Of a stretch of DNA of 64,000 bases, positions 3,990-62,928 are shown in pieces. Each line of letters starts with the position of its first letter. Position 1 is the stretch's first letter. Under the pieces are notes generated by a model. It was not told where the DNA came from, ran no database searches, and saw only the letters and a list, made by a program, of their open reading frames with translations. This stretch comes from Eledone cirrhosa (Eukaryota): NCBI GenBank assembly GCA_964016885.1, contig OZ024745.1, positions 121,892,001-121,956,000 of the forward strand, given 5' to 3'. A program made the position numbers and the translations under genes.

Positions 3990-6613
3990 TCTATATATCC
4001 TCACAAGCTGAAATCCAGATACAAAGTGTTGTCCTTAAATGCTTCTAGTTTATTCAAGAAGATCCATCTTTTTGATTCTTACATCAAAAGTATTGACCCC
4101 GATTTCATTACAGTCACGGAAGCATGGGTGCATTCTTTACACTGTGATGGGGTTTTCAGCATAGCTGGCTACAACTTTTTTTCGCAAAGACTACATTAAT
4201 CGCTGTGGTGATGATTTGATGATTTACGTTTGTTCAAACTTTTCAGCAATTCCTTGCAATGATTTAAACCAATCACAAGATATGTTCTGCTATATATGTA
4301 TGACCATATCAACACTTCTACTTGGAGTTGTTTACCGCCCTCCAAATTGCCATCAGGACACACAGAGCTGCTGCCTGGAAAACAGCCACTTATGTTTTCA
4401 TTGTAGACAACTTTAATTACCCTGAGATTAATTGGAAAACCTTTTGTTGGCTGCAAAGTTCAAATGATTACCTTGAGCTTGTGCTAGATTTGAGCTGGTC
4501 CCAAGTAGTCACCTCCTCCACAAGAGGTGACAACACTTTGGATCTATTCTTTACCACTACTCCTGAAATGGTTATTAGTGTCACTACTGAAGAGACTTTA
4601 GGTGACTCTGATCATGCTATGATCATTGCTAATCTGTCTCTTATGGGCAGTAACAAAAACCACAACCCTCTCCAAACTGTTTGCTTTGACTGGAATAAAA
4701 CAGACTGGAACTCTTACAACACTGAGTTACAAGACCCAAACTGGCTTGAATTTTACAACTCTGGAGATGTGAACACTATACTTCAGAACATCCTGAACTC
4801 AATATGGACAGCATGTACAGCATCAGTACCATGTAAGCACATAAACATCTCCAAAGTGCAATTTGGGAGACTGCAGCAGTCCGACTTGCCAGGGAAGAAA
4901 TTGTTATCCTGAACAGGAAAACAAACTACATAGATCAGAGGTTAATAGAAAAAAGTGCAATAAATCATCCAACCATCTCAAGCAGGAGATAAAAAAGGCA
5001 GTTCTTGAATTTGAATAACGCATAGCAACTAACCCTGACAGTAAAGTGTTCTGGAAATATGTATGTTCAAAGCAGAGACCTCATTCTCCAGTTGGTCCTC
5101 TTTGCAATCCCCACACAAGCCAGATTACTAACGATCCCAAAGAATTTGCAGAACTTATTGCTGAATGCTATGCAGGCATTGTTACTGTTGAAAACCAAAA
5201 TGTACCATTTCCACCACCTCTGACATAAAATTTGATAACAACTATGAAATTTACACCTGCAATGCTGCGACGCCATTTTAAGAATAAGCACAACTATACC
5301 TCTCCTGGTCTTGATGGTGTTACATACCTACTTCTCGAACCTGGTGGGTACTTTCTTCTGAATCAGCTTTCACTCTTCTTTCAATTCTGTCTGAACAATG
5401 GTGTTATCCCAGAGCAGTGGAAAATTTCCAGTGTCATTCCTCTGTTCAAAAAGAGTGTCTGGACGTCACCTGTCAACTATCGTCCAGTTAGTCTTACAAG
5501 TTGCATCACCAAACTGATCGAGTCCTGTATTAGAGAAACACTCTGGAACTCTCACAGCCTTATCTGGCCTTTGTAATTTGGATTTATCCCTAACTCCAGC
5601 TGCTATGATGAACTCATCGAGTTTCTTGAAGACATTGTCCGAATCACTGATGCCAGCTCATGGGTGGATATTGTGTATCTTGACTTTGCTAAAGCTTTTA
5701 ATTATGTGCCACACAAATGACTCATGGCAAAACTCTCTGAGGCTAGTGTGAGAGATGATTTTTATAACTGGTTGAAGTCCTTCATTCTCAGTCGAAAAAA
5801 GGTAGTCACTGTTCTAGGACAGCATTCTTCACCCTATAAGATGACATCTGGTGTACCACAGGCATCTGTTCTTGGTCCCCTTTTGTTTATTGCATATATT
5901 AATGACATAGATGCCAACTTAAATAATGCCACAGTACTGAAATACGCAGATGATGGCAAGCTGTACCTTGAGATAAAAAGGACAGACCCTGTATGCTATA
6001 GATCTTTCCTGCAATCAGACCTGGATTATGGACTGGCAACTCAAGCTGGCTGTGGACAAGTGTACTACCATGCATTTTGGGAGGAAAAACCCAGTTTTCA
6101 CATACTCCTTCCACAACACCAATCTCAATAAGTTTCTTGTAAATCTGACCTGGGCATTACCATCAACAGTAATTTGCGTTGGACAAAGCACATCTCTAAA
6201 ATTGTCATGAAAGCCAAGGGTGTCTTAGCATCACTCAGTAAGATCTTTGTCATCTGCTCTCCAGCTATCTATTTAAAGCTGTTTATAACTATGGTACGGC
6301 CACACTTAGAATTTACATCACCAGAACATTGACCTCTTGGAAACTGTTCAGAGATGTGCAACCAAGCGAATACCCTCCATCAGGCATCTACCATACTCTG
6401 AATGCCTCGCTTCCCTAGGCATGGATACATTAAAGCTCTGACGTCTGGTAATTGACTTGGTAGACACCCAAAAGATTATTTACCATCTTTCCAACAACAA
6501 CACTGAGAAGCTTTTTGAATTCCATGTGTCTAACACCAATGGACGTTGCTTAAAAAATCAGAAAACAGCACAGCTCCCATGACTTTCGGAAATATTTTTT
6601 CACGCTCAGAGTT
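3990..6613 (+). mobile_element. CR1-type LINE, degenerate ORF2 (APE endonuclease + reverse transcriptase)
   Basis: GVVYRPP, NFNYPEINW, TRGDNTLDLFF, LGDSDH (APE); SPGLDG, NYRPVSLTS, YLDFAKAF, SGVPQASVLGPLLF, YADD at 5943-5954 (RT); many stops and frameshifts. Confidence 0.93.
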
Positions 6614-13893: not shown

Positions 13894-15885
13894 AGGACCA
13901 CAAGACAGTGTGTCAGGGAAAATTGTGTTTGTCGCTGGGAAGAAGTGTGTCTGAAATGATTATGGCAATCTTGTCTTCAAGACGTTGAAAAGAAGGTAGC
14001 ATGGAAGTGCTACTTTGAAAGATTACTGAATGAGGAGAATACATGGGAAGAAGAAAGTTTGTCACAGAGGGACCGGCTGTACAAGTCAGCAGTAGTATAG
14101 TAAGTAAAGCAATCAAGGATATGAAGTCAGGCAAGGTAGCTGGACCCTCAGGGATAGTTGCTGAGATGGTTTTAGTCACACGATAGTCTCCCGCATTGCA
14201 AAACCAAGTAATACAAAATGGTGTCATACCCAGTGACTGGTGTAGAAGCATCATTGTAAACTGCTACAAGGGCAAAGGCGATGCTCTAGATAGAGAAAAC
14301 TATAGAGGCATTAAGTTCGTTGACCAGGTTATGAAGGTCACGGAAAGAGTCATAGCACAGATGATTAGGGAATGAGTTAACCTAGATGAGATGCAGTTTG
14401 GATATGTACCAGGTAAAAAAAAACCACAGATGCCCTCTTCCTTGTAAGACAACTGCAGAAGTACCTAGCTAAGAGTAAACCCCTCTACTTCGCTTTTGTA
14501 GACCTGGAGAAAGCTTTTGACTGAGTCCCCCGTTCCCTTATCTGGTGAGTGCTTAGAAAACTAGGAGTAGATGAGTGGCTTGTGAGGGCAGTACAAGCCA
14601 TGTATAGAGGAACAGTCAGCTAGGTCAGAATTAACAATGACTTTAGCAAAGAATTTAGTGTGCAGGTTGGTGTCCATCAGGGCTCAGTTCCTAGCCCTCT
14701 CCCGTTTATGACTGGCTACCATGGGAACTCCTGTATGCAGATGATCTAACCCTTATAGCTGAATTAGAGATGAAATTCCAAACCTGGAAGCACAGCCTAG
14801 AATCAAAAGGTCTTAAAGTCAACTTGGTAAAGACTATAGTTCTTTTAAATAGAAAGGAAAAAAGGGCCCATATCTCCTTAGGGAAATGGTCCTGCTCAGT
14901 GTGCAGAAATGGAGTAGGTAGAAATTCCATCCTATGTCCCAAATGCAAACTATGGGTACACAAGAGATGTAGTTGGATCTCCAGCAGGCTAACAAAGATC
15001 ATAGGTTTTACATGTGGCTGGTGCTCAGGGGCAGTAAGTAGCAAGAGCTCTCAGGATACAATCACCTTCAAATGCTCAGAGGGCTCTGTAGAAGTGGTAG
15101 ATAGTTTCTGTTATCTGGGTGACAAAATCAGCAGTGGAGGAGGGTGTTCCAAAAGTACAGTAATAAGAGTGAGATCGGGTTGAAGAAAGTTCAGGGAGCT
15201 ACTACTGCCGTTAACTACAAAAGGCTTGTTCCTCAAAATGAAAGGCAGACTGTATTACGTACGTATAAGAACAATTAGGTTGCACAGCATCGAGACCTGG
15301 GCACTGTGTGCAGAGGACCTGCAAAGATTGGAAAGATATGAAGCCTCCATGCTTTGCTGGATGTGCAATAGCAATACATATGAACGGCAAAGCATAAACA
15401 AACTGGGAGAGAAATTAGGCATAAGAGGGATCAGATGCAGTGTGCAGGAGAAGAGATTGCGTTGATATGGACATGTGATGTGTATGAAGCATGATAGCTG
15501 TATAAAAGGTGTACAGCGCTCAAAGCTGACAGAAGCCATGGAGTGGGCAGGCCTGGAAAGACAACTACACCTCTCTAAGGTGATGGCACAGGACTGTGAT
15601 CTCTGGTGTTATACAGTATTACAGAAGACCCACCCTTCCATATGCACAAGCCGAGGCATATATCTAGTATGCAACACTTTCCCTACCACCGCCCCTCCCT
15701 TGCTGTAATCATCCCACCCCACACCATAAAGTGGTCTCCACGGAGTCACGACAAATGTGGTGTTAGGAAGGGTAGCCAGCCGTAGAAACCAAGCCAAAAT
15801 CAGTTCTGCGTGAGCGAAACATGGTCCTACGACCTGAATCTCTTACAACGGGACAGCCCATCCTAGCACGAAAATAGACGTTCTC
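13894..15885 (+). mobile_element. RTE-clade LINE, 5'-truncated, degenerate RT + PHD-like finger + 3' UTR
   Basis: NYRGIK, QFGYVPG, AFVDLEKAFD, GVHQGSV, YADD at 14734-14745, WSCSVC..GVGRNSILC.KCKLWVHKRC, FCYLGD, GHVM. Confidence 0.93.
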
Positions 15886-16096: not shown

Positions 16097-16225
16097 TAAT
16101 AAAAGATCAGAGGCCTTATTCAGTTGATTCAGGTTTATTTAAAACTCCGTTATACATATTTCACTGAGGACTATCGGTTATGCTAGCCTGAGCTCTTCAG
16201 ACGGCGAAACCTAAAATAAACATTG
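16095..16225 (+). mobile_element. Penelope-like element 3' remnant with degenerate hammerhead core
   Basis: INKRSE peptide (typical of PLE C-termini), then CTGAGGA (16164-16170) ... GACGGC-GAAA-CC and AATAAA. Confidence 0.5.
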
Positions 16226-16519
16226 AAAGTTCCTAATAAACCTTTAAATTTTGGAAAAATCCAATAATTTCCCCGAAAAAAAAATTATTTTTATGATACA
16301 GGGGGCCAGCTGAACGCGTGGTATTGTTTCTTCAACGGCCGGCCCTTATATATCTATCTCTCTCTCTATATATATATGTCTGTGTACGCGTGTGTAAACA
16401 TTCTGTTTGTATGCATCGATATATATGTAAATACTGTTATATACAGCACAGCGTAACCGTTTCCTAGGTACTCGTCCGTATGACCACCTCCAGTCTTCCT
16501 CCCACCTCGTCTTAACCGT

Positions 16520-17992: not shown

Positions 17993-24733
<6,741 letters not shown>

Positions 24734-25069
24734 AATATGATAATAATGGAGCTGCGGCGCTGCAAATGGGTTACATATGAAAAAGTCTGCCCTCATCAGT
24801 GGCCTTCCAACCGTCGTAGGCATTTCGTCGCATTAAAGGCCATATACCCCAGGTTGGTGCGAGCAACGGCTAAAAAAAGTCGTTGGGACACGTAAATAAG
24901 GGGGACGCTAGGGTAAACAAACAAAATGGTTTAAGCAACAGAAAGTGATGAAGAAGAAACAGAAGTCCGACGAGCTTTTGGCGGGCCAGATCGAACCTTG
25001 TGCTGATCAATCGCGAAACGCACGCCACTACTCAATAAGTGTAACGAAGACCTAACAAATCGTCCTTTT

Positions 25070-25181: not shown

Positions 25182-25657
<476 letters not shown>

Positions 25658-27527: not shown

Positions 27528-27826
27528 TTATATATATACTATATATATATACTATATATATATATATACACTATATATACTATATATATATATATATATA
27601 TACTATATATATATATATATATACTATATATATATATATATACTATATATATATATATATACTATATATATATATATATACTATATATATATATATATAC
27701 TATATATACTATATATATACTATATATACTATATATATACTATATATACTATATATATATATATATACTATATATATATATATATACTATATATATATAT
27801 ACTATATATATATATATATATATATA

Positions 27827-27857
<31 letters not shown>

Positions 27858-27870
27858 CTATATATATATA
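27528..27870. repeat. (TA)nC punctuated microsatellite
   Basis: Visible. Confidence 0.95.
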
Positions 27871-27916
27871 CACAATGATATTAAATAAATGGAAACTATA
27901 TTTATAAAACCATATT

Positions 27917-27980
27917 TATTTTATTATATATATTTCTAGGGTACCAAGACAACATTGGTACGCTTTCATCAGATAAAATA
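27917..27980 (-). ncRNA. Minimal type-I hammerhead ribozyme motif (Penelope-type)
   Basis: Minus strand: TATTTTAT (stem I) CTGATGA a-AGCGTACCAA-tgttgtc-TTGGTACCCT-a (stem II) GAAA tatata (palindromic stem III) TA ATAAAATA (stem I'). Confidence 0.65.
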
Positions 27981-28049
27981 CAAAGTTTGTTTTATAAATA
28001 GACATACCCATGAAAATCATACCTTATCGGTTGGAAATTCACTAGATAG

Positions 28050-28099
<50 letters not shown>

Positions 28100-28256
28100 G
28101 TGTGTATAATAAAATATATTTGATCACATGAATGTCTATATTTATTAATATTTTGAAGTAATATTAATAACTCCAGAAAACTTCTTTGTTGAGTGCTTCT
28201 AATCTATTGTAAAACTTTATCCATTGATTAATCAATGAACCTTGTTAAACTTTTGG

Positions 28257-28288
<32 letters not shown>

Positions 28289-29247: not shown

Positions 29248-29290
<43 letters not shown>

Positions 29291-29439
29291 ATATATTAAC
29301 AAATGGAAACTATATTTATAAAACCATATTTATTTCATTATACATATCAACTAAACTGACCAAATTTGCTCCCCTCCCCCCTTTCAAAAATGCTTCCACC
29401 GCCCCTGTATTTATATATTTATATATATATATATATATA

Positions 29440-29650
29440 CAGGGGCGGTGGAAGCATTTTTGAAAGGGGGGAGGGCAGCAAATTTGGCCAATTTAGTTGT
29501 TATTATCAAATATCAATCAAGATATAAAAAACTTCGATATGTGATAAACATAACATGTACAAGAAATATGTGTTTTGGTAGATTGGAGAGTAAAATATAG
29601 TTATATTGGCGGGCTCCATGCTTCCCCACCCCCCAGTACCACTGCTCCTG
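29440..29650 (+). mobile_element. hAT-like MITE with an adjacent inverted duplicate of its left end (29348-29407)
   Basis: CAGGGGCGGTGG ... CCACTGCTCCTG termini; 29348-29407 is the reverse complement of 29440-29499 with a few mismatches. Confidence 0.65.
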
Positions 29651-32819: not shown

Positions 32820-34590
32820 GCTGGGTAAACAAAATTATTTGTGTTCTGGACAAATAAGTCTTGTAAACTACCCACCCTGGAGCAACCAACGTAAAGCTGA
32901 CCATGAGAAAAGTGAGGCTAACTTAAGTGCAAGCCAGTAGATTTCAAAGTCTGACATTCAGCTTTATTGATAGACATTACAAAGCAAAGTTGCACTGGGA
33001 ATTGTGTTCATTTGAACTCAAATGGCATGTCCATTGGTTTGATTGGAATTCTTGTAATGAAAACATCTTTCCCAGGGGCACACCCAGCGCTGATGGCAGC
33101 TTCAATCACATTGTGATAATGTTTTCACAATCAACTTTATCCCATTGCATAATTTTAGAGGATGTAAATTTCTTAGAAGCATTATGGCGAATCCAACCTT
33201 TAGAAAATGTTTGTGGAGGATTTCCAGCTGGCTCAAGAGAATTAAGGAACTCTGTTAGGCAATGGACAGCTTGATTTTCATTAAAGACTGAATCAACTGA
33301 TTTGAACTCCATAATTACTGTTGGAACCTTATTCATTAGCTCATGGTTAATCCTTGCTACTGTCTCATTTTTTGTTTAGCAAGAATTACCCTTTGTGTGA
33401 ATTATAATGATTACTTAAGTCTGGAAATACTGTTCTTCAATTCAGCTGGTGAATCCACCATGAAAGCAATATGAGCCCAATTGATATAACCATTTCCATA
33501 AATTGGTACTGTCCTATTTCCTAATTGAAGGAGTTAGGGTTGAAAACTGTTCTATACATTGGTCCCTGTGTAATAAAGCTTGCATATTAATATTGAAGAG
33601 GAATTTCTGTACTTTATTCCATAGCTGTGAAGACATAATGCAGGCTTTTATTTCATCAGCTCTTGTTCCTCTCGGAATAACTGGTAATGTCTGTCTGAAA
33701 TCTCCTGATAAAACTAATGTAACTCCTCCCATAGATTTATTGTTGTCTCTTATGTCCTGTAAGGACTTATCAAGAGCTTCCATTGCTCCTCTATGTGACA
33801 TTGTGCATCCATCTCAAATGATCAGGTGGCATTGGTGCAACACTTCTGCTGAACCCGAACCTTTGCTTATGTTACAAATTGGACCGTCATTAGCAGCCTG
33901 GTTTAGCAGTAATTTAAAATCAAAATGAGCTGTTTGTCCTCCTGGGAGAAGGGTGGCAGCAATGCCAGACAATGCTACAGCAAGTGCAATTCTATTTTGT
34001 TGCCTTACCTTAGAGAGAAGCAATGTTGTTTCAAATGCTTTACCTGTGCTACCTGGTGCATCAAGAAAAAAAATTCCTCTGACTGACGAAATGATTTCAT
34101 AATATGCACAGCATTGTTCTGGAAGACATTCAAGCTCATGTTCATTCACAAATACAGCCAACTTTGTGATATTATAATTTGTCTCTCTTGCAATTAACTC
34201 TTGAAGTTAAACCACTAATTTGACTGTTTGCTTTTGGCAGTTCAGAACGAGTCTCTTGCAAATTCTTGCCTCTCATGGCCAAAATTGATCCTCACTTTCA
34301 ATCAGTGCTTGATTGAAAATTTCTTTATAAAACTGAATATTGATACCTGGGTTTGCCTGTTGAACTGCAGACTTTAAGTTCGCAGCCAAAGCTGTAGGGC
34401 ACTGCCAATTTGGCACATGTTCAGCATAATATATCTTCCTCTCTCATACTGTGCAAATTTGTCATTTTTATTTATCTGCTGACTGCCATTCTGCACTAGA
34501 ATGTATGTTGCAGCATCTAAACCTTTGTTTACATATTTGCAAACATACTTAATGGACTTAAAAGAGCTGCAGAATTCAACATTGATATGG
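32820..34590 (-). mobile_element. Helitron RepHel remnant (Rep C-terminal part + Pif1 helicase)
   Basis: HINVEFCSS.KSIKYVCKYVNKG; FFLDAPGSTGKAF (Walker A); AVALSGIAATLLPGGQTAH; MSHRGAMEALD; LSGDFRQTLPVIP; EFLNSL; FSHGQLYVGCSRV. Confidence 0.92.
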
Positions 34591-37339: not shown

Positions 37340-38272
37340 ATATAGATTTTATATGTGGCTGGTGCTCGGGTGCAATAAGTAGCAGCAAGTGCCCACAATA
37401 CTAGCTCATTCCATTGCACAGATGGTTCTATAGAAATAGTGGACACCTTCCGTTACCTGGGTGACAAAATCAGCAGTGGTGGAGGGTGCTCTGAAAGTAC
37501 AGTAGCTAGAGTCAGAACGGGATGGAAAAAGTTCAGAGAGCTTATACCACTATTGGCCGCTAAAGGGTTCTCTAAAAATGAAAGGCAGGCTGTATGATGC
37601 CTGCATACGAACAGCAATGTTACATGGCAGTGAGACTTGGGCATTGTGTGCAGAGGATATATGCAGACTGGAGAGGAATGAAGCTTGCATGCTCCGCTGG
37701 ATGTGTAATAGTAATATACGTGAATGGCAAAGCATAAATGAACTAAGGGAGAAATTAGGAATAAGAGGAATCAGATGTTGTTTACTCGAGAGAAGACTAC
37801 GTTGGTATGGTCACGTAATGCGCATGAAAGACAACTTGATAAATTCCGATCTCACACACTTACACCTTTCCAAGACAATGTCACTGGACCGAGATCTTTG
37901 GTGCTACACAGTAATACAGAAGACCCGCCTTGCCTAAGTACAAAGCGAAACCTACAGTCAGTAGGCACCTCTAACAAAAATGAGGTCGTGTAGATGTCAC
38001 GAAAAAAAAAACAGTCCATGCTGTAATGTGGCCGTGTAGGTAACATGGTAAAAACTTCCCAGTCCACGCTGTAATGTGGCCGTGTAGGTAACACGGTAAA
38101 AACCTCCCAGTCCACACTGTAAACGTGGTTGGTGTTAGGAAGAGCATCCAGCCGTAGAAAACCCGCCAGACAGTCCTATACGAGCAAGACAACCAATCTT
38201 GCCTCAAGTGGGAAAATTCCCGTCCAAACCCATGGAAGCGTGGAAGATGGACGTTAAACGATGATGATGATA
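37340..38272 (+). mobile_element. RTE LINE 3' portion
   Basis: FRYLGD, KGRLYDACIRTAMLHGSETWA, RLRWYGHVMRM; 3' tandem repeats and (GAT)n tail. Confidence 0.9.
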
Positions 38273-54156: not shown

Positions 54157-55640
54157 CTAGCTGCCTCCTGGTCTGTACTGTGCTAAAATATATTTGTAAG
54201 GCACCTATTGTCTGTCATTAATGTCCAGTTTCCTTAGAATAAAAGATGTTAAAAGGTATTTAGATATTGTGTAACATAATTTTTAAAATTTATTTAGAAT
54301 ATCTAAATACAAAATGTAATAAAGAAAATAATAGAAAAAGGTATTCTACGAAAGTTACAAACCATTTATGGAACTTCAGTATATGGAACTTCAGTGTTTT
54401 AAACATTTTTCTTTGGAGCAAATGTAAGGTGTTTGTGGGGTCTTCCTAATCTGGAACCTACATACAAGTAGCCTTCTTCTAGTTGGAGACCAACAACCTG
54501 CAGGGTTTGACTTTGGGACTTGTTAATAGTCTTTGTGCAACTGATTTCACTGAGAATTGCAATCGTGTGAAACGAAGGGTGACATCTTTTGGTATTAGCG
54601 ATATTCTAGGTATAAATGCGATGTCTCCCTTACCACTTCCAGTGAGGATTACTCTTTCACACAGCCACTTCTCATTGGAATTGTGGATTTGGAAATTGGG
54701 GAACACTTAATGAAGATTACAATGCTTTCCACAACAGTACAAAATGATGAAGGATCAAAACATCCTTCAGTATCAAGGGATTACTTTTCTATAAATTTGA
54801 GCATCTGAGATGCTTATCTGTAACTCTGAGTGTCCCCCCTCTTTTCCTGCCTGTTATTCACGCTGAAGAAATCTCAGATTAGTTGAAAACACTTGAAAGA
54901 CCATAATTATTATCAACTAGCATAAGAGCCCTTTGTTGCCAGGCACACCTTTCACCACTGTAAATAAAGACACCCACCCACTCTCTCCTCAACAGGGCCG
55001 TCTTTAAATAGTCCCAGAACTCTGCTATTTTAGGGAAGAGCAAGATTTAAACTATATGTTGACATGCTCCGGGAGCTAAATAACCTATGTATCAAATTTG
55101 AACAAAATCGGATGGAAACTGTGGAAATGCCTTAACTGCACACACAGACACAGACATTTTGTAGTGGAGTCTGTGCTGCTGTACGGGTCTGAGACTTGGA
55201 CACTGACCAAGAAACTCACTCAGATGGTGGATGGGTGCTACACGAGAATGCTGAGGATGGCTCTGAACATTAATCAGTATACACTGAGGATGAAAAACTC
55301 AGAACTATATGGGAGCCTCCCAAAAGTCAGCTCAAAAGTGACACAGAGGAGACTGAGGTTAGCTGGACATGCTCACCAACATCCAGGGTTGACACAGCAC
55401 TCAGTGCTCTTGTGTGAGCCCCTACATGGACACACTGGAAGAGGAAGACCGAGGTTAACGCATGTTGTTGCCCAAAGGACAGACACTGGTCTGTTGGAGA
55501 CGCAGGACATGGCAGGGACAGAGACCGCTGGAGAGAACTCGTCCATGGATCTCGGGAATTTACCCGCCCTAGATAGAGATTTTATTTAGTGTTATTAGCA
55601 GTTAGCCTACAAACAAAATTCCTCTTTATAAGTATATAGA
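54157..55640 (-). mobile_element. Non-autonomous Helitron with both termini, a Pif1 C-terminal remnant and an RTE fragment
   Basis: 5' A|TCTATATACTTATAAAGAGGAATTTTGTTTG; 3' CTAG|T at 54157; VILTGSGKGDIAFIPRISLIP....RLQFSVK and INKSQSQTL at 54480-54660. Confidence 0.72.
55160..55590 (+). mobile_element. RTE-clade 3' fragment (distinct family)
   Basis: VESVLLYGSETWTLTK....DGCYTRMLRMALN; RRLRLAGH; GRGRPRLT. Confidence 0.85.
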
Positions 55641-55788
55641 TATATATACATCAAACAATAAAGTTTTTCTGTTTTTGTCCAATTTGATTGCATGCCAGCA
55701 AGAGAGCCTCTACATAGTGCTAGAAATAGTTGCCAAAACACATGAAATACACATGAAATTAATGAGCATTCCACAAATGTACCCTTAA

Positions 55789-56172
55789 CTTTTCAGCATT
55801 TACATTACGCTGTATTTACTACATGTAAAATTCCGTTAAAACGAATACGATTATAATGAATTTTTCAGTATAACATTTTTTTCAATCACCAGCCACAAGC
55901 TCGATGTTTTTTGATCAATCTCGTTGTAAAGAATTTTTTCATTACAACAAAATCTTTTTTATACCTTGTGAATTTCATTAATGGAATTTCACTGTATTGT
56001 ATTTTCATGGTAAAGGCTTTATCTCACATAATTATCTCACATATGAGATTTTGATGTTATTTATTTTGAGAACAATACTTTAACATCAGTATGAATGGCA
56101 GATTACAGCCGGTTTGAACAGAAAGAGGTGAGAGAATTCTGGCTGGATATGGTTGGTTTAAATGCTAAAGGG
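55789..56172 (-). mobile_element. piggyBac-type MITE hosting a TA-flanked pogo-like MITE (55822-55994)
   Basis: TTAA ends; insert TA-CATGTAAAATTCCGTTAA ... TTAATGGAATTTCACTG-TA; removing it restores TATTTACTATTGTATTTTCATGG as seen in the 50809 copy. Confidence 0.85.
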
Positions 56173-56331
56173 TTAATGTAATTCACACTGAGATTCAGCA
56201 TGACAGTGGGGCACATGGCTGGCTCTTTGTAATCCTGATAGCCCATTTGATAGTTTTCCAGTTTTGATCTACCCAATTTCATTCAAACGGCTTGGGTTGA
56301 CCCAAGGCTATGGTAAATGACACATGCCTGA

Positions 56332-56365
<34 letters not shown>

Positions 56366-56483
56366 GCAGACATACTCACCCATACACACTGGCCTACTTA
56401 CACCCACCTATGCACACACATATATACACATGCACACAATGAGAGTTGTAGATTTATAAATCTACAACTCAACACTACCATCA

Positions 56484-56850
56484 ATCATCATCATCATCAT
56501 TTTACGTCTGCTCTTCCCTGCTTGCAAGGGTTGGACGGGTCTTATTCAGCACAGCATCTCTCCACTTGTCACGGTCCCTCGTCATCTCCACCGTGAGCTT
56601 CAGCGATCTGAGGTCTGTTCTCACCACCTCCGCCCATGTTTTTCGTGATCTACCACGTCTTCCTTCAACTGGCATTTCCTGGCACTTCTTCACCCATCGG
56701 TCATCCTCCATGCGCATCACATGTCCATACCACCTCAGTCTCCTCTCCCGTACACTACATTCTATCCCTCTCAGACACAGTTTCTCTCTCAACACATTCA
56801 TGCTGGGTCGTTCACGCACATTTACACTGCACATCCAATGGAGCATGCTT
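56484..56850 (-). mobile_element. RTE LINE 3' fragment
   Basis: RERRLRWYGHVMRMEDDRWVKKC...GRSRKTWAEVV; (GAT)n tail. Confidence 0.9.
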
Positions 56851-56902
56851 GCTGGATGTGCAGTGTCAATGTGTGTGAATGATCAATGTGTGTGTGTGTG
56901 TT

Positions 56903-58945: not shown

Positions 58946-61900
58946 AACCAGTCTAACCACACAACACTCCAACCAGTCTAACCTCACAACACTCCAACCA
59001 GTTTAACCACACAACACTCCAACCAGTCTAACCTCACAACACTCCAACCAGTCTAACCTCACAACACTCCAACCAGTCTAACCTCACAACACTCCAACCA
59101 GTCTAACCTCACAACACTCCAACCAGTCTAACCACACAACACTCCAACCAGTCTAACCTCACAACACTCCAACCAGTCTAACCTCACAACACTCCAACCA
59201 GTCTAACCTCACAACACTCCAACCAGTCTAACGTCACAACACTCCAACCAGTCTAACCTCACAACACTCCAACCAGTCTAACCTCACAACACTCCAACCA
59301 GTCTAACCTCACAACACTCCAACCAGTCTAACCTCACAACACTCCAACCAGTCTAACCTCACAACACTCCAACCAGTCTAACCTCACAACACTCCAACCA
59401 GTCTAACCTCACAACACTCCAACCAGTCTAACCTCACAACACTCCAACCAGTCTAACCTCACAACACTCCAACCAGTCTAACCTCACAACACTCCAACCA
59501 GTCTAACCTCACAACACTCCAACCAGTCTAACCTCACAACACTCCAACCAGTCTAACCTCACAACACTCCAACCAGTCTAACCTCACAACACTCCAACCA
59601 GTCTAACCTCACAACACTCCAACCAGTCTAACCTCACAACACTCCAACCAGTCTAACCTCACAACACTCCAACCAGTCTAACCTCACAACACTCCAACCA
59701 GTTTAACCATAGAACACTCCAACCAGTCTAACCTCACAACACTCCAACCAGTCTAACCATAGAACACTCCAACCAGTCTAACCTCACAACACTCCAACCA
59801 GTCTAACCTCACAACACTCCAACCAGTTTAACCTCAGAACACTCCAACCAGTCTAACCTCACAACACTCCAACCAGTCTAACCTCACAACACTCCAACCA
59901 GTCTAACCACACAACACTCCAACCAGTCTAACCTCACAACACTCCAACCAGTCTAACCTCACAACACTCCAACCAGTCTAACCTCACAACACTCCAACCA
60001 GTTTAACCATAGAACACTCCAACCAGTCTAACCTCACAACACTCCAACCAGTCTAACCATAGAACACTCCAACCAGTCTAACCTCACAACACTCCAACCA
60101 GTTTAACCATAGAACACTCCAACCAGTCTAACCTCACAACACTCCAACCAGTTTAACCATAGAACACTCCAACCAGTCTAACCTCACAACACTCCAACCA
60201 GTCTAACCTCAGAACACTCCAACCAGTCTAACCACACAACACTCCAACCAGTCTAACCTCAGAACACTCCAACCAGTCTAACCTCACAACACTCCAACCA
60301 GTCTAACCACACAACACTCCAACCAGTCTAACCTCAGAACACTCCAACCAGTCTAACCTCACAACACTCCAACCAGTCTAACCTCACAACACTCCAACCA
60401 GTCTAACCATAGAACACTCCAACCACTCTAACCTCACAACACTCCAACCACTCTAACCTCACAACACTCCAACCACTCTAACCTCACAACACTCCAACCA
60501 GTCTAACCTCACAACACTCCAACCAGTTTAACCATAGAACACTCCAACCAGTCTAACCACACAACACTCCAACCAGTCTAACCACACAACACTCCAACCA
60601 GTCTAACCTCACAACACTCCAACCAGTCTAACCTCACAACACTCCAACCACTCTAACCTCACAACACTCCAACCACTCTAACCTCACAACACTCCAACCA
60701 CTCTAACCTCAGAACACTCCAACCACTCTAACCTCAGAACACTCCAACCAGTCTAACCTCACAACACTCCAACCAGTCTAACCACACAACACTCCAACCA
60801 GTCTAACCTCAGAACACTCCAACCAGTTTAACCATAGAACACTCCAACCAGTCTAACCTCACAACACTCCAACCAGTCTAACCTCACAACACTCCAACCA
60901 GTCTAACCTCACAACACTCCAACCAGTCTAACCTCACAACACTCCAACCAGTCTAACCTCACAACACTCCAACCACTCTAACCTCACAACACTCCAACCA
61001 GTCTAACCTCACAACACTCCAACCAGTCTAACCACACAACACTCCAACCAGTCTAACCTCACAACACTCCAACCAGTCTAACCTCACAACACTCCAACCA
61101 GTCTAACCTCACAACACTCCAACCAGTCTAACCTCACAACACTCCAACCAGTCTAACCTCACAACACTCCAACCAGTCTAACCTCACAACACTCCAACCA
61201 GTCTAACCTCACAACACTCCAACCAGTCTAACCTCACACCACTCCAACCACTCTAACCTCACAACACTCCAACCAGTCTAACCTCACAACACTCCAACCA
61301 GTCTAACCTCACAACACTCCAACCACTCTAACCTCACAACACTCCAACCAGTCTAACCACACAACACTCCAACCAGTCTAACCTCACAACACTCCAACCA
61401 GTCTAACCTCACAACACTCCAACCAGTCTAACCTCACAACACTCCAACCAGTCTAACCTCACAACACTCCAACCAGTCTAACCTCACAACACTCCAACCA
61501 GTCTAACCTCACAACACTCCAACCAGTCTAACCTCACAACACTCCAACCAGTCTAACCTCACAACACTCCAACCAGTCTAACCTCACAACACTCCAACCA
61601 GTCTAACCTCACAACACTCCAACCAGTCTAACCTCACAACACTCCAACCAGTCTAACCTCACAACACTCCAACCAGTCTAACCTCACAACACTCCAACCA
61701 GTCTAACCTCACAACACTCCAACCAGTTTAACCATAGAACACTCCAACCACTCTAACCTCACAACACTCCAACCACTCTAACCTCACAACACTCCAACCA
61801 CTCTAACCTCACAACACTCCAACCAGTCTAACCTCACAACACTCCAACCAGTTTAACCTCACAACACTCCAACCAGTCTAACCACACAACACTCCAACCA

Positions 61901-62928
61901 GTCTAACCACACAACACTCCAACCAGTCTAACCACACAACACTCCAACCAGTCTAACCACACAACACTCCAACCAGTCTAACCACACAACACTCCAACCA
62001 GTCTAACCACACAACACTCCAACCAGTCTAACCACACAACACTCCAACCAGTCTAACCACACAACACTCCAACCAGTCTAACCACACAACACTCCAACCA
62101 GTCTAACCTCACAACACTCCAACCAGTCTAACCACACAACACTCCAACCAGTCTAACCACACAACACTCCAACCAGTCTAACCACACAACACTCCAACCA
62201 GTCTAACCTCACAACACTCCAACCAGTCTAACCTCACAACACTCCAACCAGTCTAACCTCACAACACTCCAACCAGTCTAACCTCACAACACTCCAACCA
62301 GTCTAACCTCACAACACTCCAACCAGTCTAACCTCACAACACTCCAACCAGTCTAACCTCACAACACTCCAACCAGTCTAACCTCACAACACTCCAACCA
62401 GTCTAACCTCACAACACTCCAACCAGTCTAACCTCACAACACTCCAACCAGTCTAACCTCACAACACTCCAACCAGTCTAACCTCACAACACTCCAACCA
62501 CTCTAACCTCACAACACTCCAACCACTCTAACCTCACAACACTCCAACCACTCTAACCTCACAACACTCCAACCAGTTTAACCACAGAACACTCCAACCA
62601 GTCTAACCACAGAACACTCCAACCAGTCTAACCACACAACACTCCAACCAGTCTAACCTCACAACACTCCAACCAGTCTAACCTCACAACACTCCAACCA
62701 CTCTAACCTCACAACACTCCAACCAGTCTAACCTCACAACACTCCAACCAGTCTAACCTCACAACACTCCAACCAGTCTAACCTCACAACACTCCAACCA
62801 GTCTAACCTCACAACACTCCAACCAGTCTAACCATAGAACACTCCAACCAGTCTAACCTCACAACACTCCAACCAGTTTAACCTCACAACACTCCAACCA
62901 GTTTAACCATAGAACACTCCAACCAGTC
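58946..62928. repeat. 25-bp satellite AACCAGTCTAACCTCACAACACTCC, about 159 units
   Basis: Directly visible; constant 25-bp period with a few recurrent variants. Confidence 0.98.

Follow-up and report, generated by a model that had tools for sequence, protein, structure and literature searches.

The closest described systems are the Hydra-clade Penelope-like elements (PLEs), including Hydra-1_Obim, for which DKT, CxCX5C, RW[KR] and CxxC/CxH motifs together with (TA)n targeting are diagnostic, and in whose hammerhead ribozymes the base of stem II is U.U in 14 of 26 rows, counted by eye in the available portion of File S2 (Craig et al., 2021; PMC8557442). In the accessible alignment of metazoan PLE hammerheads, A-U occupies this position in a few of 56 rows (Cervera and de la Pena, 2014; PMC4209133). 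The Poseidon PAc element of Anolis carolinensis has two internal reverse-transcription starts and an uncut RNA template, and its hammerhead, which depends on protein, is not required for insertion in vitro (Frangieh et al., 2024; accessible sections of PMC11167929). Beyond the papers cited, PMC6765202 and PMC6466107 among these (each available in part), nothing was found in the literature on Hydra or cephalopod PLE ribozymes.

Inspection of structure and family alignment revealed a type I hammerhead motif at positions 27917..27980 of the window (the whole 64-kb stretch of DNA analyzed here), with all of its parts on the minus strand. The initial annotation had read this strand correctly, letter for letter, at 27980-27917. 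The 5′ arm of stem I (27973..27980) pairs with the 3′ arm (27924-27917) at 8/8 positions, which bears out the perfect 8-bp stem proposed earlier, and 96.6% of the cells are paired in 59 aligned rows. Both core boxes are present with no base absent: CUGANGA (C3-A9, here CUGAUGA) lies at 27966..27972, and the GAAA box (27936-27933) and an 8-nt palindrome (27933-27926) occupy 27926..27936. The stem II region (27937..27965) consists of an A.A at 10.1/11.1 (27965/27937), where the family norm is A-U, two pairs, a C.C mismatch as the fourth position (27962/27940), seven pairs and a 7-nt loop; its arms (27964-27955 and 27947-27938) hold nine pairs and the C.C, in agreement with the ten-position stem with one mismatch described before. 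GAAA is followed by a UAUAUA loop, U 27926, A 27925 and the 3′ arm of stem I, so that the palindromic stem III sequence and the AUA triplet of the initial annotation are both found. The triplet fits NUH and accompanies the CUGANGA and GAAA core; from hammerhead numbering, cleavage is predicted after AUA (27924..27925), and the 3′ product would begin at 27924. The label "near-complete" understates the motif, in which every core base is there. "Minimal type I" was right as to type I, but the strict minimal form is replaced by a variant with a small palindromic stem III.

Searches with Rfam hammerhead models and with a type I descriptor had been proposed as checks. The Rfam models gave no match to the motif at E ≤ 10, whereas the descriptor found it, with 2 matches in the 64-kb window vs. 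0.067 per sequence of that length after dinucleotide-block shuffling (n = 60). In none of the 60 shuffled sequences did a match have a palindromic loop or a stem I of 8 bp. The folding energy by itself is ordinary (z −0.31). We confirm that 27917-27980 is a real and complete hammerhead motif.

The motif lies in an insertion at 27873..28051 (minus strand, ∼180 bp, both ends uncertain by a few bases through TA microhomology) that, by identity to other copies, is the 5′-truncated 3′ end (pseudo-LTR) of a Hydra-clade PLE of the youngest subfamily, with a "short" 3′ end. A (TA)n target array (27529..27870) adjoins its 3′ end and (AT)22 (28053..28097) its 5′ junction, as seen by repeat inspection. 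The 182 bp between the TA arrays gave 2170 candidate matches in the 3.0-Gb genome; 40 of the 2170 candidates were scored and yielded 47 matches at 94–100%, and the insertion is 97–98% identical to the 40 best scored. Three substitutions and a 2-bp deletion set it apart from copy L004, and in the long copy L034 its sequence corresponds to the 3′ UTR. An exact 34-mer, marking the youngest subfamily, occurs 310 times in the genome. A conserved, hairpin-forming 33-mer (27884..27916, minus strand) between the cut site and the short 3′ end, common to older subfamilies, has 23,291 exact genome matches, and it recurs with 0–1 edits in 26 of 32 matches within endonuclease-anchored loci; it is possibly a protein-binding or RT-initiation signal.

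Across (AT)22, head-to-head with this insertion, lies the long-tailed 3′ end of a different hammerhead-bearing family (28103..28258, plus strand), truncated inside stem III and recognized by its identity with L125/L127 (84–85% across 170 bp) and with L086 (98% across 60 bp). A short end and a long tail across (AT)22 mimic one inverted insertion whose arms belong to two families; otherwise they are two insertions into one TA tract. The truncated copy of the 3′ flank reported at 29283..29347 (minus strand) does exist; it is not of the same copy type, however, but a 3′ end from a sister subfamily (97% identical to sister-subfamily copies vs. 93% to the copy at 27873-28051), truncated in the GAAA/stem III region, and it retains the palindrome, the NUH triplet and the stem I 3′ arm. 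A second complete hammerhead, from another repeat family (1368 genome candidates, 86–92% identity), was observed at 16100-16345 (minus strand, core 16151-16200), with three pairs followed by a C.C mismatch, a palindromic loop and a 3′ end on (TA)n. Neither a Hydra-type ORF (by inspection of the reading frames) nor a partner hammerhead of the same family was found within the 64-kb window. The window further contains a 6.7-kb TA/TG compound array (17996-24738), a 25-bp satellite (58946-62928; 159 copies, 96% match) and long inverted repeats at 29341-29506 and 25251-25402, MITE-like or inverted insertions, which account for sub-threshold microRNA matches. The segments at 4304-6128, 14695-15180, 33517-34206, 37506-37934 and 55080-56882 are presumably fragments resembling LINE reverse transcriptases and a Helitron-type helicase.

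The parent element was traced outward from ten copies to L034, in which, between two (TA)n tracts, an inverted truncated copy is followed by a broken ORF, ∼1.2 kb of 3′ UTR and a sense hammerhead. Forty loci spanning 70–95% identity were then taken from the 150 endonuclease matches listed. The family hammerhead lay in sense downstream of the endonuclease in 25/40 of these loci, at a spacing of 1.08–1.72 kb in 23 of the 25. Among all 22 loci found with a 33-mer of the 5′ UTR, the ORF start was closely preceded by a hammerhead in sense in 13 by script and in 14 by eye, and in tandem copies the cut site is ∼200 nt before the AUG. A hammerhead located both after the endonuclease and before the AUG lies in the pseudo-LTR, and the PLE origin suggested in the initial annotation is thereby upheld. 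The parent unit is ∼3.5 kb with a 3′ UTR of 1.1–1.7 kb, and a tandem and inverted pseudo-LTR structure with hammerhead and optional tail is present.

For a 688-residue frame (L062), 126 homologues score E ≤ 1e-10, and those with a species name are from Argonauta and Elysia; its atlas neighbours carry HTH_animal, RVT_1 and GIY-YIG. Its model (pLDDT 85) has TERT as best fold match (E 4e-9), with low TM-scores of 0.34–0.40, and no GIY-YIG structure is among the fold matches listed. In the putative GIY-YIG part, the Y-x-G motif and a downstream R/H are conserved; the part has no Pfam match, and PF01541 occurs in 26–31% of atlas-neighbour members. Pfam returned no family on the ORF pieces except one weak unrelated match, RVT_1 was matched by only 1 of 26 aligned homologues, and a PDB sequence search with the ORF gave no match. 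As modeled, the parent ORF is a single frame with a telomerase-like RT. The DKT, CxCX5C, RW[KR] and C-terminal CxxC..CxH motifs are conserved across the 26 aligned sequences; on these motifs and (TA)n insertion, the clade is assigned as Hydra. Assignment to the Neptune clade was dropped in favour of Hydra, as was a hammerhead antisense to the ORF, an impression that arose from inverted 5′ copies. The family is a large and apparently undescribed Hydra-clade expansion.

Conservation was assessed at 99 distinct sites, taken from the first 100 of the 33-mer matches listed, a choice unbiased as to upstream sequence. The motif is kept in 90/99 sites and is truncated or deleted in 9. In these 90 copies, chosen by fuzzy anchors that include the core, with 9/99 left out, 0/11 core columns vary at 5% or more vs. 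21/25 near-flank columns; the CUGANGA box varies by no more than 1–2% except at N7, which varies in 34% of the copies and takes all four letters. Among 59 distinct rows, we counted 73 double-change cells vs. 31.8 ± 6.6 in shuffled and 5–26 in slid controls, a figure inflated by the repeated counting of related sequences. The stem covariation sought as a check is thus seen above both controls; it concerns 4/10 pairs of stem II (chiefly pairs 2, 5 and 6), and nearly all changes in stem I and the palindrome give G.U. Judged from these alignments, the pattern is that expected of a maintained hammerhead: a core near-invariant except for N7, a covarying stem II and a kept palindrome point to selection for a dimer-type ribozyme.

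We consider it very probable that 27917-27980 is a type I hammerhead of a Hydra-clade PLE terminal repeat, stranded in a 5′-truncated (TA)n copy, that the parent likely cleaves weakly and as a dimer only, through the palindromic stem III, and that the lone copy likely has no host role. Stem III is predicted to form between two copies via the 8-nt palindrome, the letters of which differ between families yet remain self-complementary. The active monomer fold (−5.3 kcal/mol) has a probability of 0.0002, whereas the double-hammerhead fold reaches −23.2 kcal/mol, although the best dimer fold (−26.7) is 3.5 lower; a disfavoured monomer and a better double hammerhead agree with the low PLE dimer activity described in the available part of PMC4209133. 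Copies end 52 nt past the cut site or ∼92 nt further (64 short and 35 long of 99, by a rough classification). The long-end extension is the element's own 5′ start, and inverted pairs often have one short and one long end, a pattern that fits the two internal starts of Poseidon PAc (PMC11167929, accessible sections).

These data would be accommodated if tandem source copies were transcribed and reverse transcription started internally ∼52 or ∼145 nt downstream of the cut site, running back through an intact hammerhead. The template would then be uncut, or re-ligated into a circle, which would look the same in DNA. Any cleavage would set free an RNA of unit length that begins ∼200 nt ahead of the AUG, and the element protein may assist folding, as with Anolis Poseidon (PMC11167929). 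In ∼90% of copies the sequence continues across an intact cut site, and 5′ junctions are not enriched there: by eye, 6/99 fall within ∼+8 to −6, of which 2–3 fit the exact site, confounded by TA microhomology. In two sister families with palindromes that are not TA repeats, the junction is at the cut site in 0/30 and 1/30 copies. A genomic cleavage footprint was not found, and no enrichment is claimed.

The A.A at the base of stem II is predicted to lower activity, a plausible effect. The initial annotation took G-C as the norm at this position, which does not hold here: the base is A-U in 43/59 rows, and published Hydra rows are often U.U. The G10.1-C11.1 pair and the extra base after A9 of the PLE consensus, as given in the accessible part of PMC4209133, are both absent from the window motif, and the available portions of PMC544870 and PMC2837043 hold no data on A.A at 10.1/11.1. 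Position 11.1 is U in 87/90 and A in 0/90 mostly older copies, and A in 46/310 exact copies of the youngest subfamily. A is present on both arms in five inverted pairs, and together with its frequency among the young copies this argues that A.A was inherited from a still-mobilized source copy. No second base was linked to the variant at p < 0.01 among 44 copies. Nine of the 46 A.A copies lie on the window's contig (C5, 135 Mb of 3.0 Gb) vs. 7 among the first 100 copies listed, on C1-C3, which possibly reflects local spread from one source.

The strongest competing explanation, which we hold to be possible but clearly the less likely, is that the retrotransposon RNA retains the fold for a structural role or for protein binding, that cleavage is negligible or dispensable, and that A.A spreads freely for that reason. 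The uncut motif in 90/99 copies, the scarcity of cut-site joints in the two sister families, and A at 11.1 both among young copies and on both arms of inverted pairs are what it would lead one to expect; Poseidon catalytic mutants insert unimpaired in vitro (PMC11167929, accessible sections), and Naiad elements thrive without hammerheads. However, exactly the catalytically required bases are conserved while N7 is free, and A at 11.1, with 0/90 in mostly older copies, did not persist.

Another reading starts from the C.C mismatch. The fourth stem II position is unpaired in 58/59 rows. Six families with a 6-nt palindromic loop, found among the loci analyzed, carry C.C (five) or C.U (one) at this position; their flanking pairs and palindrome letters differ, whereas the C.C position is shared. 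Fresh samples of two of the families had C.C in 24/25 and 27/27 copies, and one of the six is also linked to a Hydra-like ORF. We found no C.C at the fourth stem II position in the accessible alignments of PMC4209133 and PMC8557442, nor a C.C mismatch in literature searches, although Lunse et al. (2016) may describe one. Hammerheads of these families might be a distinct structural subtype, in which a C.C (or C.U) after three pairs replaces the usual loop II contact and serves tertiary or protein docking, and the palindrome of each family is a pairing code that chooses which genomic copies can cleave one another, either in trans or within a read-through transcript. We regard this proposal as rather unlikely; if it were true, 27917-27980 and 29347-29331 would exemplify read-through pairing, and the code would act among tens of thousands of copies. 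As separate observations, families with TGATCA and TGCGCA loops (L211-L270) have 5,111 and 17,311 exact flank matches, in the TGATCA-loop family the base of stem II is U.U in 25/25 parsed copies, and at L090 four CTAG-loop hammerheads stand in tandem ∼430 bp apart, in a retrozyme-like arrangement.

It is improbable that the window copy is an active cis-cutter, in which a hypothetical read-through minus-strand transcript would pair the core with 29347-29331 and cut between 29339 and 29338. Both pieces are on the same strand, 1.3 kb apart, the pairing gives an 8-bp stem III and an 8-bp stem I, and no fold of the two strands is lower in energy than the two-piece hammerhead (−14.0 kcal/mol). This fold was, however, computed for the two short strands by themselves, the A.A pair probably lowers activity, and the window's reading frames show only repeat fragments. 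Even less credible is a non-autonomous retrozyme, that is, a tandem hammerhead repeat spreading as a small circular RNA, in place of a coding-element fragment: most copies are short and non-coding, with 49/99 extending at least 225 nt upstream, and animal retrozymes may derive from PLE repeats (bioRxiv 2026.07.22.740005, available in part), but the family is not a tandem array, its 5′ ends are scattered, and on the upstream side its sequence passes without a break into the ORF's 3′ UTR, a linkage that largely refutes the idea. A chance match in AT-rich sequence, for which the ordinary z-score and the AU-only stems I and III might speak, is refuted by the descriptor null, family conservation and covariation, and is practically out of the question.

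Within the terminal-repeat reading that we prefer, the locus is a single dead-end copy out of >23,000, and it is useful as a way into the Hydra-clade expansion, whose graded subfamilies are a natural mutagenesis of a PLE hammerhead. These subfamilies bear on the function of PLE ribozymes: selection acts on the core, yet copies seem to derive from uncut RNA, and the A.A variant, presumably a weakened one, was mobilized all the same. Both the C.C mismatch and the natural A-U vs. A.A pair lend themselves to direct tests in vitro.

Such ribozymes have been described before; the one unusual trait here is the conserved C.C mismatch. As to animal non-LTR retrozymes, the available part of PMC7229834 describes the same type I hammerhead, weak stem III and dispersed repeat, but they are short tandem non-coding repeats, whereas the window motif belongs to a coding element; a tandem non-coding repeat with one hammerhead per unit is not what the window family forms. 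Poseidon PAc has the same two internal RT starts, short and tailed 3′ ends, uncut RNA template and AT-rich targets, but its ORF starts inside the hammerhead, whereas in the window family the AUG lies ∼200 nt after the cut site (PMC11167929, accessible sections). The metazoan PLE hammerheads, as far as PMC4209133 is available, share type I topology, CUGANGA/GAAA, a palindromic stem III, a long stem II, a terminal-repeat location, mostly solo truncated copies and predicted dimer action. Their consensus has an extra base after A9 and G10.1-C11.1, unlike the window motif, which lacks both and has an 8-bp stem I; their accessible rows have no C.C, and two have another mismatch at the fourth pair (by eye).

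The Hydra-clade PLEs, including Hydra-1_Obim, are closest (Craig et al., 2021; PMC8557442, accessible sections). They have a C-terminal endonuclease, which is putative in the window family, and share with it DKT, the CxCX5C linker, RW[KR] and CxxC/CxH, (TA)n targets, a hammerhead lying in sense close to the 3′ end, truncated copies in inverted orientation, an optional tail and a stem II base other than G-C. Published elements are generally <3 kb, and published PLE tails are 30–40 bp, whereas the window family is ∼3.5 kb, with a 1.1–1.7-kb 3′ UTR and tails of ∼92 nt. The Hydra-1_oBim hammerhead as listed has another sequence than the window family, and a long stem II with C.C and an 8-nt perfect palindrome has no counterpart among the 26 Hydra rows in File S2. 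Compared with these systems, the element and the ribozyme are of known kind, the family is new, and its stem II is modestly unusual.
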